64,000 nucleotides of DNA from Acidobacteriota bacterium (GCA_965263035.1 OZ253580.1:5472001-5536000), one strand, 5' to 3'; numbered from the stretch's first letter, positions 4,533 to 23,703 are shown. Program-made: numbers and translations. The notes: generated from the sequence alone by a model not told the origin.

Positions 4533-4692
4533 CAGTCCGTGGTGAAAGTCCCACGCAGCACCGAGACCGGGGCTGCGCCCGCCGGACAAGGCGCTCTGAG
4601 GGAGCATACCGGGAGTATGTGACCGAGGAGCAACGCAGTCCGCGCACGATGCAGACCCGGTCGAATGCCGTGACGATTTTTGCCACGGGCTG
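4533..4692 (-). mobile_element. 160-bp MITE, copy 2
   Basis: Reverse complement of copy 1 with few substitutions; flanks CTTG/TTTG. Confidence 0.85.
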
Positions 4693-4805
4693 TTTGGGCA
4701 AGTCGTATTCGACGGCACGCCGCGGCGTTCGTCACGAACGGACTCTTGGAGGCTACTGAAGCGTGAGCCGTTCTTCAAGCCGATTGCCGGCCGTGGGCAA
4801 CGGCG

Positions 4806-6095
4806 CTACCCTTGCGCGTGACGCCGCAGCCAGAAACGCCATAACCCGGCGGGAACCAGCGTCAGGACACACATCCCCGCCAGGATTTCCGACACCTTCA
4901 ACGGCGAGTCCAGAGCCAGGCCTGTCGCTGTCACGCCGAAAGTGGACAGCAGCGTGAAGATGGCGAACTCGGTGGCGAAGACTCGTCCCCGTACTTTTCC
5001 CGGGACGGATTGGAGCAGAAGCTGAGTGGAAAAGACCCAGATGATTCCGCCACCGACGCCTGCCCCGAGGCTACCCAGGAGCACGGTCTCCAGGTTGACG
5101 AGGAGAGACGAGATCCCCAGGCCCAGAGCACTCAGGAGATAGCCCGCGAACAGGGCCAGACGGAGCCGTTCAGGCCGGTCCGCGGTCCAGACCCGGGCGG
5201 CGATGGGGCCGATACCCGTTCCCAGGCCGGCAGCGGAGAAGAGCAACCCCAGGCTGATTCCGCCGGCTTTGCCCAAGGGAAACAGACTACGGCCGATGAC
5301 CACCTTGACGACCTGATATCCCGAGGAGAAGACCAGCGCCGTGACCCCCTTGTGAAGGGCCGTGACCAGAATCAGCCGGTTGTTCCGGAGGTAGGCGAGA
5401 CCCTCCAGGTACTGCACGACGGCGGTCTCGAACAGCCCCCGGCCGGAGGCAGACGCGGTTTCGGGTACCTTCCGGTACTGCACCCCCAAAAGGATGACGG
5501 CGGATACGATGAAACTGAAGGCATCGATGATGAAGGCGGGATAGATGCCCCAAGTCCCGGCAACGAGCCCTCCCAACGCTGCCCCGAACGCGAGCATCAC
5601 CGACCAGGTGGTCGCGTTGACGGCGTTGGCCGTTCCCAGTTCCCGGGAAGAGACGATGTCGGGGAGGATGGCGTTGCGAGCCGGGAAGAAGAAACCACCC
5701 AAGGCCAGCTGGATTGCCGTCAGTGTGTACAGCAGCCAGACGTCCTGTGGCTCCCGGACCAGCAGGAAGCCGCACACGGTGACGGCACGAAACAGGTCGC
5801 TCAGGATCAGAACGTGCTTACGATTGCATCGGTCGGCGACGACGCCGGCCAATGGGCTAATGAGAAAAGGGGCGAGCATTCGTACCGCAAACAAGCTCCC
5901 TACGGCGAATCCGGAGCCGGTGAGCTGTGCCAGAAGGGCAGCCGAGGCGATCAGATTGAACCAGTCGCCCAGCAGGCTCGCGATCTGCCCGAACCATAGA
6001 TACCGGAAACTGCCGTTTCCCCGAACCAGCTCCCAATAGCCGCTCGCCGACGTGGAATTGTTCGGCTCGGTCCGAGTCTTCAATCGGGCCGGCAT
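4806..6095 (-). CDS. MFS transporter (MFS_3/DHA3-like)
   Basis: About 12 hydrophobic segments; GVVADRCNRK motif A; FRYLWFGQIASLLGDW. Confidence 0.9.
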   Translation of the reverse strand: MPARLKTRTEPNNSTSASGYWELVRGNGSFRYLWFGQIASLLGDWFNLIASAALLAQLTGSGFAVGSLFAVRMLAPFLISPLAGVVADRCNRKHVLILSDLFRAVTVCGFLLVREPQDVWLLYTLTAIQLALGGFFFPARNAILPDIVSSRELGTANAVNATTWSVMLAFGAALGGLVAGTWGIYPAFIIDAFSFIVSAVILLGVQYRKVPETASASGRGLFETAVVQYLEGLAYLRNNRLILVTALHKGVTALVFSSGYQVVKVVIGRSLFPLGKAGGISLGLLFSAAGLGTGIGPIAARVWTADRPERLRLALFAGYLLSALGLGISSLLVNLETVLLGSLGAGVGGGIIWVFSTQLLLQSVPGKVRGRVFATEFAIFTLLSTFGVTATGLALDSPLKVSEILAGMCVLTLVPAGLWRFWLRRHAQG

Positions 6096-7306
6096 GGATC
6101 ACACTCGAACAATTCCCGACGGTCTCGTGCCAAACTCGCGCTAACGGAACGGGCGTCCTGTTCCGGAGGCCGGCTCCGGGTCCAACCCGCCCTGCGCATC
6201 TCATCCAGGATCCGTTCGGCGACATGGGCGTGCCCGGTGGGGCTGAAATGGCTGTCGGTGAGAAAGAAATCCTCGACCGGCATCGTACTGGCTTCGATGC
6301 TCCGCCGGACCGAGATCACGGTCGCTCCCAGACCCTCCAACACGCCTTCAACCCGGTTCGTTCCATATCGAGGATCCAATTCTTCAGGTTTCCCGCGCGA
6401 ATATTGGGACCAGAGTTTCGTCAGCGTCCATTTATAGGGGATAACCAAGCCGATGAGGGGGATCTCCCGCTGGTCGAGAAGCTTCTTCACGCGATTCAGA
6501 GTCTCTTCGGTATCTTCCCAGGCTCTCTGCAGCGGTGGAGACTGTCGTCCTTCGGGGAGAAGGGAAGCAAGAGCTCCGGTCACGGAGATTCCGGCCTGCC
6601 GCGCATGCTGCAGGAAATAGCGCTGAGTCGAGCGGGGTTCGCCGGGCCTTGTCTCCTGGATCCAGAGCGAGGCCCGAACCGCGCGTTCCTCCGCCAGTCC
6701 GAAGATCCGGAAACGGCCGCGCAATTCGGCTCTGACGGGATTCAGAAAAACCGGTTGCAGATCCGGAACGGTGGCGTTCAAGTAGGGACGGAAGAGGTCC
6801 TGCATGCTGCAGGTATGGGCAAGTTCAACGCTGTTGTTGCAGAGATCGTTGAACGGAAACACCTGGAGGACCACCACGTCCGGTCTCAGGTCCAGCCCGA
6901 GCGTCTGCAATGCGATCAATTGCTGGTTGGTGCCCCAGTCCCCGACGGCCAGGTTGATGACCTCCCAGGACTCGCCGTTCCGGCTGAGCCAGTCCGCGAG
7001 CCGTCCCGGGTACGTCTGTTCGTAGGCCACGTTTATCCCTGCCGAGAACGAATCTCCCAGGTTCACCAGCCGTCGAGTCCCCTCCGGCTTGATCCGGCTC
7101 ACCTGCGGGTAGCGGAAACCTCCGGAGTTGAGCCCGCCGACACGCCGGTGAACCGGGTCCAACCTCCAGCCCAGATCCGGGTCGAAGCGATACCAGGGAC
7201 TGGTGTTGGGATCATAGTCAGAGACCCGCAGTCCCAACTCGACGACCGTCATCACTAGCAGTGTGGACGCCAGACCCAACAGGAGCTTGATCATTGTGCT
7301 CTTCAT
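6080..7306 (-). CDS. SGNH/GDSL hydrolase family protein, membrane-anchored
   Basis: N-terminal TM; LGDSF, INLAVGDWGT, FPFND, DSHFSPTGH (SGNH blocks). Confidence 0.8.
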   Translation of the reverse strand: MKSTMIKLLLGLASTLLVMTVVELGLRVSDYDPNTSPWYRFDPDLGWRLDPVHRRVGGLNSGGFRYPQVSRIKPEGTRRLVNLGDSFSAGINVAYEQTYPGRLADWLSRNGESWEVINLAVGDWGTNQQLIALQTLGLDLRPDVVVLQVFPFNDLCNNSVELAHTCSMQDLFRPYLNATVPDLQPVFLNPVRAELRGRFRIFGLAEERAVRASLWIQETRPGEPRSTQRYFLQHARQAGISVTGALASLLPEGRQSPPLQRAWEDTEETLNRVKKLLDQREIPLIGLVIPYKWTLTKLWSQYSRGKPEELDPRYGTNRVEGVLEGLGATVISVRRSIEASTMPVEDFFLTDSHFSPTGHAHVAERILDEMRRAGWTRSRPPEQDARSVSASLARDRRELFECDPCRPD

Positions 7307-17126: not shown

Positions 17127-17155
17127 AGTTTAGTCGGGGGGTCAGACACTGTCAA
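17127..17155 (-). promoter_or_regulatory. Sigma70 promoter for the aminotransferase gene (probably leaderless)
   Basis: TTGACA-17nt-TAAACT, -10 box 7 nt before the ATG, no Shine-Dalgarno. Confidence 0.65.
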
Positions 17156-17235
17156 TTGGACCCGCCGGGCAGCAGTGGGGCCGTGGAATGCTGGGGAAGA
17201 CCTTGCACTGAGTACACACTCGGCTATACCGGGGG

Positions 17236-17309
17236 TGCACCCGGCGGGACTCGAACCCACAACCTCCAGGGGAGTCAACCCGGTACTGTTCCAGTTCAGC
17301 TTCGGGCGC
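17236..17309 (-). tRNA. Atypical tRNA / tRNA-like element (GAC-containing 8-nt anticodon loop, G3:U70)
   Basis: Cloverleaf: GCGCCCG/CGGGTGC-A, D arm GCTG-AACTGGAA-CAGT, anticodon stem CCGGG/CCTGG, T arm GTGGG-TTCGAGT-CCCGC; A at position 8, no encoded CCA. Confidence 0.65.
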
Positions 17310-18262
17310 ACCCACCTTCGTGCCCATCCCCTCTGACATTCAGCAGAAGTTTTGAAGTTTCTGGTCGGGAGAGAATGGCATGAGGGTGCATTCGCTTGAA
17401 TCTCAGCGGGGGACTTCGCTACGGTGAACTTGTCCAGAGGAAGCGGGCATTGATACGGAAGAAATGATGAGTGTAATGAGACACACGCTAGGTCCAAACT
17501 ATATCGCCCGAGCGAGAGAAGCTCTGGACTTCTTTGGTAATGAGGCTGTAGGGGTCTACCCCGAACACGGAAAAGAATTTAGTGCAGGTTCGCCTGCCGC
17601 CTGTGAGCTATCTGCATCTAGAGACCCCCATATGCCAGTGGATGCACTGACTATGGCTACAGCGTTGATTGGGTCGGGCAGCGAACACGTCCTAGCCTAC
17701 AGCAGAGCCATCACGGAGCCGATTCTGACCACTGCTTGCTGGAGTTGCGCTCGTTCCGTGCTTGAGCCGTGTGCCTTCGCTTTATGGCTTCTCAATCCGC
17801 AAATTGATCCCCACACCCGTGGTGGAAGGGTATACGCTCTCCGTTACAAGAATATGGAAGAAGGGTTGAAGTACATCCGTGCGGTCAGTGGGACCGATAC
17901 GGACATACAAAAACAGAAGAGCCGTATTCGTGAAGTTGAACGAGAGGCGTTTAATTACGGATATCTTCCGCTCACTGCCAGAAGCAGGGGCGGTAAGAGA
18001 AAAGGCAAGCGGATCGGTATTGGTCAAGTTATGCCTTCGGCTACAGAAGTAATCAAACAAATGCTCGATGAGGAAGGAACGTATCGGGTACTCTCAGCCG
18101 CAGCTCATGCGCGCAGTTGGGCAATCAGGGTACTCGGAAAAAGAGAAACTGGGCACAGACGAAAGATTGAAAATACTCAGGTGGTTATTTTCGAGGCTCA
18201 CACTAAACCCGAAACGATAGCAGCATTTAGTGTTGCGTCGGCGAAAGCACTAGCCAAGTCAC

Positions 18263-20258
18263 CCCGGATTATTCATCACGCAAACATAAAATGAGCAAGC
18301 GTGCCCGTCATGTCGAGTCGGATCAGAGGGTTACCGGATACCCACAGAAAACGGCTGGGACCCGACCTGGGTGAAACTCTATATTAGTTTTCAACGTCGG
18401 TTTAAACTCAGGATTCAAGGGGGGCCGAAACCCAAGTATTTCCACGGTTTGCGTCCCCTCCAAGGGTGGCAAAAAGAGGTGGCGTGCCCGTCATTTGTGG
18501 TATAGTTATAGTGCTAAGAAACAACCACAAAGAACGGAGCACGCCATGCCTGAGACGATACCGCAGATCCGGCCCTCATTCAACCGATCCCTCCGCCTCG
18601 AGACCCGCCCCGAGTTGCTCAGTGCGGACACGGGAGCCCTGGTGCAGCGGGAGCTGATGGATCGCAGCGGCCTCATCGACTGGTTGACCGGGCGGTTGCA
18701 CGATCCGCGACACCCGAGTTCGATCCGCTATCCGCTGTCGGATCTGCTGCGGACTCGACTCCTGCTGCTGGGGCAGGGCTGGCGCGACCAGTCCGACGCC
18801 GACCGCCTGCGTCAGGATCCGAGCTTGCGGGTGGCGAGCGAGACTCGTCGGGGCACGGCGGCCTTGGAGGAGGGCCAGGGGCTGGCGTCGCAGCCGACCT
18901 TGTCCCGACTGCTGGACACGCTCAGCCGGGAGGAGAACCTTCCGGTCCTGCACCAGGCGGTGACGGAGCTGGCGTGCCGTCGGATCGAGATGATCGAAGG
19001 CCAGCGGCGAAAACGGGGGAAAAAGACCCCACGGAAGAAGAGACGGAAAAAGACGATGGTCCTGGACGTGGACGGTCTCCCGGTCGAGGTCCATGGGCAT
19101 CCCCCGGGAAGCGAATGGAACGGATACTATCGCCAGCGGATGTACCACGGGTTGGTGGCGAGTTGTGCCGAGACGGGGGACCTGATCGACGGGGAGATTT
19201 TTCCGGGAGCCAGCTACCTGGGGAAAAAGGCGCTGAAGTTGACGCTACGGGTGGTGGACCACTGTCGCGGGCGTCTGTGCGGCTCGATGATCGTGCGGAT
19301 GGATGCGGGGTTCCCGGAGCCGGGGCTGCTGAAGGGGCTGGAGTCGAGAAGCGTGCCCTATATCGCTCGAATCCGCAAGAATGAGGTCCTGAACCGGATG
19401 GCGAAGCCCTACTTGACCCAGCCGGCGGGGCGGTCCCCGAAAGCACCGCCGAGGCTCTGGTTCCATGAGCTGACCTACCAGGCGGAGAGTTGGGATCGGG
19501 CGCGCCGGGTGGTGCTGGTGGTGCGGGAGCGACCGGGGGAGTTGTATCCGGATCATTTCTGGTTGCTGACGAGCCTGAGCCGGAAGCGTTATGAGGCGGA
19601 AGCGTTGCTGGCGCGGTACCGCAAACGGGGGAAGGCGGAAGGCCACATGGGGGAGTTCATGGACGTGCTCGATCCGGCCTTGTCCTCCGCGAGCCGGCCC
19701 AAGACGCACTATCGGGGCAAACCGCTGAAGCCGGGAGCGAAGCCGGAAGCGACGACGGAGGCCGGAGTTCGACCCCACAACGAAGTCTTGTTCCTGCTGA
19801 ATCTGCTGGGGTACGAGATCCTGCACCTGGGTCGGGTGCTGATGGAGCAGGCGACGCGTCGGGGCTGGAGTCTGCGTCGTTTTCGCGAGCGGGTGTTGCG
19901 AGTGGCGAGTCGGGCGCTACGTCAGGGGAGGCGATTGATTTTCGTCATCAGTCAAGGGGCGACGGACTGGAAGCGGTTGTGGCAGAGACTGGCGCGGGTG
20001 TCCTGGGCGCCGGGATAGGGGACGGCGGAGGCATCGGGCCCGTGGAAGGGACCGAAACGGTGGGGATTTCTCACCGGAAAGTCAACCTGTCGGCGGGTGA
20101 CGGCCCCCTTGGCCGTTAAACGGTTTATGACTGGTTCAATCGTCCTGTTTTCGAGCCGATTCAGTCGAATCGACAGAGGTTCAAGAGAAACCGGGCTGCG
20201 ACCGCACGAAAACGCCGGGTTGGAAGCCCTTATCAACATGTCCCATGAATAATCTGGG
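18263..20258 (+). mobile_element. IS1380-family insertion sequence
   Basis: TIRs CCCGGATTATTCAT / ATGAATAATCTGGG; 5-bp TSD GTCAC. Confidence 0.9.
18546..20018 (+). CDS. IS1380-family DDE transposase
   Basis: LASQPTLSRL, LDVDG..VHG..WNGYY, VRMDAGF, YRKRGKAE. Confidence 0.9.
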   Translation: MPETIPQIRPSFNRSLRLETRPELLSADTGALVQRELMDRSGLIDWLTGRLHDPRHPSSIRYPLSDLLRTRLLLLGQGWRDQSDADRLRQDPSLRVASETRRGTAALEEGQGLASQPTLSRLLDTLSREENLPVLHQAVTELACRRIEMIEGQRRKRGKKTPRKKRRKKTMVLDVDGLPVEVHGHPPGSEWNGYYRQRMYHGLVASCAETGDLIDGEIFPGASYLGKKALKLTLRVVDHCRGRLCGSMIVRMDAGFPEPGLLKGLESRSVPYIARIRKNEVLNRMAKPYLTQPAGRSPKAPPRLWFHELTYQAESWDRARRVVLVVRERPGELYPDHFWLLTSLSRKRYEAEALLARYRKRGKAEGHMGEFMDVLDPALSSASRPKTHYRGKPLKPGAKPEATTEAGVRPHNEVLFLLNLLGYEILHLGRVLMEQATRRGWSLRRFRERVLRVASRALRQGRRLIFVISQGATDWKRLWQRLARVSWAPG

Positions 20259-20386
20259 GTCACTGTGGGAACAGCACTGCTACGCTGGATGGGAAAAGAA
20301 GCACTTGATCGAAGTATTTGAGCAGACGTATAACAGACTTGGGATTAAAGAGATCAGACGCTTTTGGCGACAGCCGTCGTAATGTA

Positions 20387-22040
20387 GTTCCCATCCGGAA
20401 AGACGTAAGTTATTGGGAAATAAGGAGTAAGGAGACATTTTCAAGCCCCGGTTTTGTCATAGTCATTTGTTAGTCTGTTGGTCCCAAACAATAGACAACA
20501 AAAGACTTACGCAAAACCGAGGGCTTGAACAATGCGTCGAAAACGGCAAAGCCAGCGTCCGCTTTCCGGACTCTGGCCCGATCACCGACTCGCGCAGGAA
20601 CTGAGAGCCGTTTCCAAAATCTTGGATGACAACCCTTCGATCCTGGAACTGGTTCTACACGATCTGTGTGACACCGGCAGTTCCGGCCAAGGGGCTCCAG
20701 GTCTCTCCGCAGAGCAGGTCCTGCGCTCGGCCATCCTCAAGAACTGGCATCAGCTGTCCTACGCCAAGTTGGCGTTTCTCTTGAGCGACTCCCAAAGTTT
20801 TTGTCGCTTCGCCCGCCTGTCCTGGCACTGGTCCCCCAGTGCTTCCTGTCTGCAGGAGAACATCAGCCGCATCCAGGCCTCCACCTGGGGACAGATCAAC
20901 CGGCTCCTGGTCGGTTGGGCCGACCGCCAGGGACTGGAGCGGGGCCGCAAGATTCGAGCCGATGCCACCGCGGTGGAAAGTCACATCCCCTATCCGACCG
21001 ATTCCCAGTTGCTGTCCGACGCGATTCGGGTCCTCACTCGAACCCTTCGCAGGCTGGCCCAGCGTCAAAAGATCGTCTTCCATGATCACCAGCTCCGGGC
21101 CAAGCGTCGCTGTATGAACATCCGAAGCCACCGGGGCGCACGGCGCCGCCGAGCGTATCGGGATCTGTTGAAGGTCGCTCGCAAGACCGCTCATTACACC
21201 CGGATGCCGCTGCAGCAAGCTCACCTGTGGACGGATCCCCGCAGTCAGGTCAGGGCCGGGAAACTGCGCTATTACTTGGACTTGATGACGCGGATCATCG
21301 ATCAGACCGAGCGCAGGGTCCTGCACGGGGAGTCGGTTCCGGCCCAGGAAAAGGTCCGCTCTCTGTTTGAGGAGCACACCGACATCATCAAGAAGAAACG
21401 GCGGGAGACGGTCTTCGGGTACAAGCTGTACCTGACCAGTGGCGTCTCCGGCCTGATTCTGGATTTTGAGGTCGTGCGAGGGAACCCCAACGATGCCGCT
21501 CAGTTCCAGCCTTGGCTCACGCGTCAGTTCGACCTGTACGGCCGCTGGCCTCGACAGGCCAGCTTCGATGGTTGCTTCGCCTCCAAGGCCAACCTGCAAT
21601 GGGCGAAGGACCAAGGCATCCGAGACGTCGCCTTCGCCAAGAAACGTGGATTGAAGGTTCAAAAGATGGCGCGCTCCAGTTGAGTCTACCGGCAACTGCG
21701 ACGCTTTCGGGCCGGGATCGAAGGTTGCATCTCGATGCTCAAGCGCGTCTTCGGTCTTCGACGCTGCACCTGGAAAGGCTGGGCCCACTTTCAGCAGTAT
21801 GTGGGCCTCTCGATCACCAGCTTCAACTTGCTGGTCCTGGCCCGCCTGCTGTTGTAGCCGCAGCCTTGAAATTCATAGCCAGACGGCGGCTTCCAGGGAC
21901 CCGTGTGTCCAAAACCCGATGCCGACCCTCAAAGGAGTCGAAAATCCTTCTGTCGGCCCAGCCGACGCCGCTCTATTGCAGCTTTTTGTCCATGCCTCAC
22001 CCTATCCAATCCCCGAAAATCGGACTTTCCGGGTGAGAAC
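20387..22040 (+). mobile_element. ISNCY-like (ISDol1-group-like) insertion sequence
   Basis: TIR GTTCCCATCCGGAAAG / CTTTCCGGGTGAGAAC; 7-bp TSD TAATGTA (20380-20386, 22041-22047). Confidence 0.8.
20532..21857 (+). pseudogene. ISNCY/IS5-like transposase with premature TGA at 21681
   Basis: RADATAVESHIPYPTD, EKVRSLFEEHTDII; frame continues after TGA as VYRQLRRFRAGIEGCISMLKR to TAG 21857. Confidence 0.8.
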
Positions 22041-22048
22041 TAATGTAG

Positions 22049-22417
22049 TCACGAGAGCTGGTTGAGTTCTTGCTGTAGCTTAACCAGCTCTCGTAGTTTC
22101 TCCTCATCTGAGAGCTTGGGGTTGTGGTAGATATCCAACATGTCGCAGCCCAAACGCAGGACGGAAAGCGGCGTGCCCAGATTTTGTATGAGAGCCTGGA
22201 ACTGTGGGATTAGCTCTTTCATCTGACCATCAAGTTGTCTCGCTTCTGGCACTTCAGCAAAAGCGGCGCGAATCAGACTCAAGGCGGCGCTGGTTGTCCT
22301 GTCGAAAGTACGTACTGATTCCTGGCTAGACAAAATCAGTTCCCGGGCCATCTTGGTCGTGGTGGAAGCCTTTAGACGAGTTGGCCTGGACTTCACAAAG
22401 CCAATCTGTTTCTTCAT
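22049..22417 (-). CDS. Hypothetical protein
   Basis: 122-aa helical-looking ORF in the AT-richer cargo; no recognised motif. Confidence 0.45.
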   Translation of the reverse strand: MKKQIGFVKSRPTRLKASTTTKMARELILSSQESVRTFDRTTSAALSLIRAAFAEVPEARQLDGQMKELIPQFQALIQNLGTPLSVLRLGCDMLDIYHNPKLSDEEKLRELVKLQQELNQLS

Positions 22418-22770
22418 ATGCGTCTTTTTTCTTTACTTATGCCAGATGGCAGCAAAACGTGCTACGCTTTATTTCTCCCCAAGCTGGAGGTGCAGAATGA
22501 CGATTTCTGACATTCTTGATAGCATGGTCAATGATGCCGAAAGCATCATTGACACCCTCCTCGTATCCAGATCGGTCCGACGCAGTAACCTTCCCAAGAG
22601 AAAACTCCTGTTCTTTCCGGTCGAGCAGGATGAGACGTTCCTGGCTTCATCACTGATTCCTCCTCCGGATAGTAGCAGATCCTCCACCATCCATGTAACT
22701 CCCAAACCGGTCATCGGACGACGAACGAAACAATCCATTCGACTATCGCCCAAAGTATTGCGCTTATATT

Positions 22771-22911
22771 CTAAACTAGAGTTTTCAGGGCAGAGGGAAT
22801 GACCACCATCGTGAACACGGCCACCACAAGAACAGCGATGATCGCCACTATCCTTACGATCACCCACAGAACGACTCCTGCGCCGCCGTTATAGGTTTCC
22901 TGATTTCTCAT
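22771..22911 (-). CDS. Small single-TM membrane protein (possibly truncated)
   Basis: GGAGG RBS; MRNQETYNGGAGVVLWVIVRIVAIIAVLVVAVFTMVVIPSALKTLV; hydrophobic frame continues after TAG. Confidence 0.4.
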   Translation of the reverse strand: MRNQETYNGGAGVVLWVIVRIVAIIAVLVVAVFTMVVIPSALKTLV

Positions 22912-22941
22912 TAACGATCTCTGCCTCCATTTTTACAGGGA

Positions 22942-23180
22942 CTACCTCGGCACTAGTACGACTCCATCGCTGGACGGGCGCTTCTCCTCGAACCCCTTCT
23001 GGAACTCCCGAAACATCTCGTCCACTTCGGTCCCCCGCGAACAGAGTTCCTTTTCCAGAGCCTTGGTGAACGTTGTCTCCGTCGTGTTCATCAAGTCCGA
23101 ATGGATTTCAGGACCAAAGTGTTCCGCTAAGAATGTAACGAACAAATTCCCTCCGTGGTAAAGGTTGGTGATGGCAATAG
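22942..23180 (-). pseudogene. C-terminal fragment resembling peptidase MA-like domain
   Basis: LYHGGNLFVTFLAEHFGPE...FTKALEKEL...EMFREF; no credible N-terminus. Confidence 0.35.
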
Positions 23181-23262
23181 TGAGCGACGAGTCCAACCCC
23201 CAACAGCAAGAAAACGCTCCCCTCGCCGACCACTGATGTAATCCAATTACGCATCGGCACCT

Positions 23263-23553
23263 GCCGTCACCTGGGCTCTTGAGCACGCGATTTCACTCAA
23301 CTCTGGAGGCATCGCCGGGCCGATGCAACTGGCAGTTCTGGAGAAGAAGTCAAGAAGGCCTGACGCCCATCTCCTGTCGGATGACGAACTTGATGACCAC
23401 AAGGCAAATGCGAAAGACGCCGAAGCCTATCTTGGCGAGTACCAGATCATGGAAAAGAAGGTACTTCCACCAGTGAAACAGATCCCCAAACGTTCCAAAC
23501 TTTCTCGTCGACAACGGAAAATGCAGAAGGCGAAGCGAGCGAAACGGGGCTGA
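23263..23553 (+). pseudogene. C-terminal fragment resembling a proteasome-type (Ntn) protease-like protein
   Basis: AVTWALEHAISLNSGGIAGPMQLAVLEK...; 5' part missing. Confidence 0.35.
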
Positions 23554-23703
23554 CTCTACCCCCCCCTGCATATCGAGACCCAAAGTCCTCTCCAACATTC
23601 TACGGCCCCACTACCCGCCGGGCCATAATCGAGCCGGATGGCGTTGACCCGCAAGGGGGCTTCTGTAAGGCTTCTACGGGATGATGACGGCGAGGATTCG
23701 GGC

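Follow-up and report, generated by a model that had tools for sequence, protein, structure and literature searches.

A probable non-autonomous cassette, twice invaded by insertion sequences, between aspC and an M23 gene in an Acidobacteriota bacterium

Mobile insertion cassettes, or 'mic' elements, are described in PMC3913671 as units with inverted repeats on both sides, no transposase and, usually, a target duplication, and the same source presents MIC231 as being moved in trans by the transposase of IS231A. Here, we analyzed a stretch of 64,000 nucleotides (nt) from an Acidobacteriota bacterium (GCA_965263035.1 OZ253580.1:5472001-5536000), referred to as the window at its full length, in which a compact insertion lies between aspC and an M23 gene and carries two nested insertion sequences (IS), a tRNA-like gene and a protein-coding gene that we call ORF-A (ORF, open reading frame). 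With a probability of about 0.6, we consider this region to be a transposon of the mobile-insertion-cassette (MIC) kind, non-autonomous, bounded by terminal inverted repeats and moved in trans. A preliminary description, made from the sequence alone, had proposed a non-autonomous or deleted transposon of an unrecognized family; the kind of element was largely right, whereas the family remains unproven, the ends having been found nowhere else in what was searched. The best reading is of an element that is so far solitary and of a known, MIC-like kind.

As far as they are presented in the source cited above, MIC231 of Bacillus cereus and the qnrD 'mic' of Proteeae plasmids resemble the element described here in their imperfect inverted repeats, in the absence of an internal transposase and in the duplication of the target. 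The repeats of the qnrD mic are 24 bp long with six mismatches, whereas those of the present element span 32 bp with five. A further difference is that MIC231 has a parent, IS231A, with which it shares its ends, while no parent was found here in what was searched, and only one site is occupied. The cargo also differs from that of both elements, as it consists here of a tRNA-like gene and a DUF5677-related protein.

The region was confirmed as a discrete insertion, the edges of which coincide with inverted ends and a duplicated target (Table 1). The direct repeat that the preliminary description had placed outside each end is present as the 10-mer CCCGCCGGGC at 17161-17170 and 23614-23623, and together with the preceding A it extends to the 11-nt repeat ACCCGCCGGGC, at a spacing of 6453; its offset from the left inverted repeat is 2 nt when the end is counted from C17173, and 3 nt otherwise. 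The inverted ends were likewise reproduced: 27 of 32 positions are identical, and all five mismatches (G/A, C/T, G/A, A/G and C/T) are transitions. In 2000 shuffles of the 60 terminal nucleotides of each end, no 32-nt inverted match scored above 21, compared with 27 for the real ends. In addition, the parts of this AT-richer island that lie outside the nested IS have a GC content of 0.50-0.55, in contrast to 0.60-0.66 in the flanks. In silico removal of both nested IS, along with one copy of each repeat flanking them, leaves a core of 2,780 bp, close to the 2.8 kb estimated beforehand, with 51.9% GC against 62.1% for the genome. Given this composition and the lack of any DNA match to the cargo segments in 40 relatives (G016 included), we consider the core to be of foreign origin.

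Comparison with relatives revealed the site in its empty state. In all eight other species of the genus, aspC directly adjoins the M23 gene; a DNA search of the 40 relatives placed the aspC part and the M23 part a few bases apart in seven of these species, which was confirmed by reading the sites, and the eighth (G007) is likewise empty. In the relatives, the aspC-side DNA stops at about 17161 and the M23-side DNA restarts at about 23618. The empty-site string predicted in the preliminary description, ...ATTGGACCCGCCGGGCCATAATCG..., occurs verbatim in G005, which reads ...GTCAATTGGACCCGCCGGGCCATAATCGAGCCGG... with one copy of the 11-mer; the 11-mer is also present once at the empty site of G008 and, with a single base changed, in G004. 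At least half of the sampled words from the right part of the cargo were also found in 14 public runs, four of which (X2, X3, X7 and X11) were examined by contig. The right outer junction is crossed in all four and the left outer junction in three, the contig of X2 beginning at 17169. X2 and X11 additionally carry an empty-site form that leads from 17161 to 23618/9 with 3-4 other letters between, which fits the presence of co-occurring relatives in these runs.

Both transposase genes inside the region belong to nested IS of the IS1380 and ISNCY families (IS#1 and IS#2, respectively). As each IS has its own ends, its own flanking repeats and other copies in the genome, these transposases are not the enzymes of the outer element, in line with the preliminary description. 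The transposase of IS#1 scores 234 bits with the NCBIfam model transpos_IS1380 (cut-off 180), its inverted ends are CCCGGATTATTCAT/CCCAGATTATTCAT, and about 20 full or partial copies are present in the genome. IS#1 is missing in X2, X3 and X11, where position 18257 is followed directly by 20259 (5 letters can be assigned to either side) and the contig continues into IS#2; the 2001 bp skipped in these runs correspond exactly to IS#1 plus its duplication. X7 carries IS#1, as does the window. The transposase of IS#2 scores 340.4 bits with transpos_ISNCY_1 (cut-off 325), and the IS has inverted ends of 18-19 nt. Its transposase frame is broken into an open part of about 383-384 amino acids (aa) and a second frame, compared with 403-417 aa in four other copies. 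Both junctions of IS#2 are crossed by contigs in all four runs examined. Its identity is 80-81% to five other copies in the genome and 91% to a copy in G005 (query 4601-6154), which argues against a recent origin from those five resident copies. Outside the window, three IS1380-family copies lie head-to-tail at C1:6090239-6092161, 6092162-6094085 and 6094086-6096082.

Table 1. Features of the insertion and its contents, in window coordinates.
Feature	Position	Strand	Remarks
Whole insertion	17171..23612		6,442 bp, composed of the 2,780-bp core and two nested IS
Left copy of duplicated target	17160..17170		ACCCGCCGGGC, 11 nt
Right copy of duplicated target	23613..23623		ACCCGCCGGGC, 11 nt
Left terminal inverted repeat	17174..17205	+	32 nt, starts AGTGGGGCCGT
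Right terminal inverted repeat	23581..23612	-	32 nt, inverted partner of the left end
tRNA-like gene	17233..17310	-	tRNA-Val(gac) by ARAGORN
ORF-A, 5' part	17467..18262	+	265 codons, interrupted by IS#1
IS#1, IS1380 family	18263..20258	+	1,996 bp; GTCAC duplicated at 18258-18262 and 20259-20263
ORF-A, 3' part	20264..20382	+	TAA stop at 20380-20382
IS#2, ISNCY family	20385..22042	+	1,658 bp; ATG on either side (20382-20384 and 22043-22045), a 3-nt repeat
Orphan ORF, 122 aa	22049..22417	-	No Pfam, PHROG, PADLOC or NCBIfam match
Hairpin, 18 pairs	22051..22094		Between the convergent ORF-A and 122-aa ORF
Orphan ORF, 149 aa (101 aa as called elsewhere)	22353..22802	+	Self-matches only, no family; coding uncertain
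ORF, 114 aa	22942..23286	-	Sub-threshold NCBIfam noise only; coding uncertain
ORF, 76 aa, basic tail	23323..23553	+	No family match; coding uncertain

Outside the two nested IS, our results support the view, also taken in the preliminary description, that the element has no transposase of its own. Searches of the six cargo ORFs against Pfam, PHROGs, PADLOC and NCBIfam revealed no transposase or recombinase, with sub-threshold noise only. The right half of the core (22046-23612, 1.57 kb) contains only orphan ORFs, and none of the 34 stop-to-stop frames (35 aa or longer) that can be read in it matched a transposase or recombinase in Pfam at E<=0.5. Among 5.8 billion proteins, the 122-aa ORF matched only itself and a 100-aa version from a sister genome. 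The cargo ORFs other than ORF-A are not conserved beside relatives of ORF-A and have no paralogues in the genome.

ORF-A is the main cargo gene, and its stop codon lies 2 bp upstream of IS#2. Rejoining its two parts in silico gives a 305-aa frame with the same tail as P0001, an ORF-A encoded on a 4,988-bp contig that differs by one residue. An intact allele of 304 aa (P0155) was found on a 6,396,855-bp contig, and its residues 1-265 are 100% identical to the 5' piece in the window. The family to which ORF-A belongs is large, with 628 cluster representatives at E<=0.001, mostly of about 290-300 aa, and has a conserved R-x6-H motif: of 68 sequences, 65 retain R207 and 67 retain H214. This spacing fits the Rx4-6H signature of HEPN domains. 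The protein is distantly related to DUF5677 (Pfam PF18928): of the same 68 sequences, 24 weakly match this family, the best at 9e-7, while P0001 gives no match to it at E<=0.1. The predicted structure of ORF-A (pLDDT, the predicted local distance difference test score, 94.5) is mostly helical with a single beta-hairpin. Comparison of this model by VIA-align placed HEPN domains at five of the top seven positions with Z scores of 8.2-9.2, a range that helical bundles can reach through their common arrangement and that, at Z under 13, is not decisive for them; these matches include 2hsb_A (Z 9.2, root-mean-square deviation 2.7, 113 residues aligned), 4nqf_B (Z 9.0), and 3o10_A, 1wol_A and 1ufb_A (Z 8.2-8.3). 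VIA-align returned no match to transposase catalytic domains, Foldseek returned nothing from the PDB at E<=0.001, and the family profile matched none of the PDB sequences at E<=1.

The genomic contexts of ORF-A relatives are those of defence islands, consistent with the possible defence cargo noted in the preliminary description. At locus L044 (58-3017), a relative with a DUF5677 score of 25.7 bits, under the cut-off of 27.1, directly follows hsdM-hsdS in a type I restriction-modification operon. In two metagenomic loci (L029:240-3124 and L039:989-2460), the ORF-A relative is immediately preceded by a SIR2-like gene in the same orientation, which suggests a recurring two-gene module. Other relatives are found beside an integrase, a ResIII helicase and a methylase (L036), or among IS along with another HEPN gene (L020). 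The anticodon nuclease PrrC is a HEPN-domain RNase encoded inside a type I restriction-modification operon. The relative at L044 occupies the same position, R-x6-H is conserved, and HEPN domains are among the top fold matches; ORF-A differs from PrrC and other HEPN RNases in that it has no sequence match to solved structures and Foldseek was empty. On these grounds, ORF-A is most likely a predicted RNase-type gene of defence islands, and not a transposase. At 21 loci with ORF-A relatives, a sliding-window search revealed no flanking inverted repeats of at least 25/32 (a control recovered 27/32). At the metagenomic locus L025, a 42-nt inverted repeat (628-669 and 1551-1592, 74% complementary) flanks a lone ORF-A relative (687-1550); at best, its two sides match at 24 of 32 nt, compared with at most 21 in 10 shuffles, and it may represent a one-gene cassette or chance.

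The tRNA-like gene proposed in the preliminary description was recovered by both ARAGORN and the Rfam tRNA model, on which it scores 46.3 bits (gathering score 29). Its structure departs from that of an ordinary tRNA in several positions: A replaces U8, the anticodon loop UUGACUCC has 8 nt and not 7, U follows the anticodon in place of purine 37, and the gene shows a G3:U70 pair, A73 and CCC in place of the CCA with which the genome's own tRNA-Val(gac) terminates. Among the native tRNAs, tRNA-Arg(tcg) comes closest, with an identical acceptor stem except for G3:C70. G3:U70 is the identity mark of alanine tRNAs. The gene combines G3:U70 and A73 with an acceptor stem of the arginine type and a GAC triplet of the valine type in its 8-nt loop, and we interpret it as a tRNA that has decayed or is unconventional. 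Elsewhere in the genome, outside the window, three tRNA-like genes lie at a spacing of 100 nt at C1:48476-48752 and are called by ARAGORN as tRNA-Ala(agc), tRNA-Ala(cgc) and tRNA-Ala(ggc); their acceptor and T arms are nearly identical to one another and unlike those of ordinary tRNA-Ala genes, and two of the three have no encoded CCA.

On the aspC side, a promoter-like site for aspC is found at window positions 17127-17155 on the minus strand (TTGACA, 17 nt, TAAACT; 10 of 12 positions), 5 bp from the repeat and outside the insertion. As this site sits just beyond the edge, the divergent control region between aspC and the M23 gene has been split, with the site itself kept.

For the MIC-like element preferred here, the following course of events can be proposed. 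A DDE-type transposase supplied in trans would have bound both ends of the 2.78-kb foreign core through their imperfect inverted repeats of about 32 bp and made staggered cuts 11 bp (or 8 bp) apart in the aspC-M23 intergenic region, with gap repair duplicating ACCCGCCGGGC. As the partner transposase is found neither in the genome nor in the relatives, the cassette would then have been stranded at a single site. Later, an ISNCY-family IS would have landed just after the stop codon of ORF-A, and afterwards, in this strain, an IS1380-family IS would have split ORF-A itself.

Several observations weigh against this reading. We infer the mobility of the element from its anatomy alone, and that anatomy is asymmetric: the right copy of the target abuts the right inverted repeat, whereas on the left 3 nt (AGC) lie in between. 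An equally possible parse assumes an 8-bp duplication (CGCCGGGC) and 35-nt ends, AGCAGTGG.../GGTAGTGG..., with one match and two transitions at the three added positions, so that the length of the duplication is ambiguous between 8 and 11 nt. There is no second copy in the genome, and the four runs examined revealed no other insertion site but one and the same site throughout. When up to 3 mismatches in 32 were allowed, the genome contained no copy of the end sequence besides the two that bound the element, and none was present in 75 other genomes of the order, in 136 other genomes of the class or in a sample of 400 genomes from across the phylum (counts that include G016). Viral contigs contained no exact match to a 17-mer of the end. 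Among plasmids, blastn with the left 293 nt recovered nothing beyond short tRNA-like stretches, and the right half had no match. Of nine papers returned by a full-text literature search for the two terminal 11-mers, the eight listed were unrelated in title and abstract. The preliminary description had looked to paired ends elsewhere, in longer, transposase-encoding versions of the element; neither these nor a parent IS with matching ends were found in the genome, the class and phylum samples, the viral contigs or the plasmids, while larger collections, namely metagenomes and the genomes of all species, were not scanned for ends.

The kinship with IS4- or ISAs1-like elements that had been suggested has the length of the duplication as its sole basis. 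Table 1 of PMC2266710 gives target duplications of 10-12 and 10-13 bp for the IS231 and IS4 subgroups of the IS4 family, and the 11 nt seen here are similar in corresponding to about one helical turn. Also counting against the MIC-like reading, the terminal signatures that this source gives for the IS4 subgroups (CA/CAT, -AATR, CT and CW) are absent from the present ends, AGCAGTGGGG... and AGTGGGG.... For ISH3, the same source gives ends in CRGT, which the left end fits when counted from C17173 (CAGT) and the right end does not (TAGT), and a duplication of 4-5 bp, compared with 8-11 here. A further difference from the IS4 family is that no IS4-type transposase accompanies the element. Miniature elements of the Tn3 type have ends of about 38 bp that start with GGGG, and a 5-bp duplication. 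The present element does not fit this description, since GGGG lies 3-6 nt inside the ends and there is no adjacent 5-bp repeat.

Other explanations can account for part of these observations. If the element had once been autonomous and its own transposase had been deleted or had decayed, the right half of the core would be the remnant; it is roughly as long as a transposase gene, its doubtful orphan ORFs have no relatives among the 5.8 billion proteins, and end mismatches that are all transitions would fit the age of such a remnant. We nevertheless regard this as unlikely, because the 34 frames of the right half revealed nothing of a transposase or recombinase and no intact relative with matching ends appeared in anything searched. 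Tyrosine recombinases leave an integrated C-O-C' site, in which inverted arms stand beside a direct-repeat core. The present ends resemble such a site, and an identical repeat of 11 nt exceeds most IS duplications, so that the site-specific integration of a small circle may be considered, with the repeat as the attP/attB crossover core, the inverted ends as the arms of attP and the recombinase acting in trans or since lost. In favor of this scenario, a 9-nt part of the repeat (CCCGCCGGG) is also found in the 3' strand of the T-stem and acceptor of the tRNA-like gene. However, this 9-mer has 377 copies in the genome, or 0.39 expected per 6.4 kb, and it is oppositely oriented, inside an intact tRNA-like gene that integration would have split; the identity was therefore rejected as an att-site clue and attributed to chance. 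As neither Pfam nor NCBIfam revealed a tyrosine or serine recombinase, and no arm-like dyad is seen in the chromosome on either side of the empty site, integration of this kind appears quite unlikely. Finally, illegitimate or microhomology-mediated acquisition would mean that the inverted ends match by chance and that the repeat is a scar of recombination. The finding of one copy at one site with no partner enzyme would be expected under it, but a 27/32 match located exactly at both edges, against a maximum of 21 in the 2000 shuffles, and a repeat that exactly duplicates a sequence present as a single copy in the empty site leave this explanation barely credible.

A more speculative reading concerns both the family and the cargo. 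The cassette would be the only sighted member of an unrecognized transposon family, with ends unlike any known IS signature and an 11-bp duplication, and the two genes nearest its left end would function as a pair, the DUF5677-related RNase, with its R-x6-H motif of the HEPN type, being a toxin that targets tRNA and the divergent tRNA-like RNA its decoy, antidote or guide. The GAC loop triplet of the tRNA-like gene is complementary to the anticodon of tRNA-Asp. Against such a pair, no tRNA gene lies near ORF-A relatives at any of 29 loci, and we consider this reading highly improbable.

If the MIC-like reading is correct, this locus shows, in a clean and fully bounded case, how a small piece of foreign DNA can be inserted into a chromosome without bringing an enzyme of its own and can afterwards serve as a target for resident IS. 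Three states of the site have been observed: empty, occupied, and occupied but lacking IS#1. Should a partner transposase with matching ends be found, it would define the family and explain the unusual 11-bp duplication. The ORF-A family is large and uncharacterized, with a conserved R-x6-H motif and defence-island contexts. The intact ORF-A in sister strains and the IS-disrupted allele described here constitute a natural knock-out pair for functional tests.

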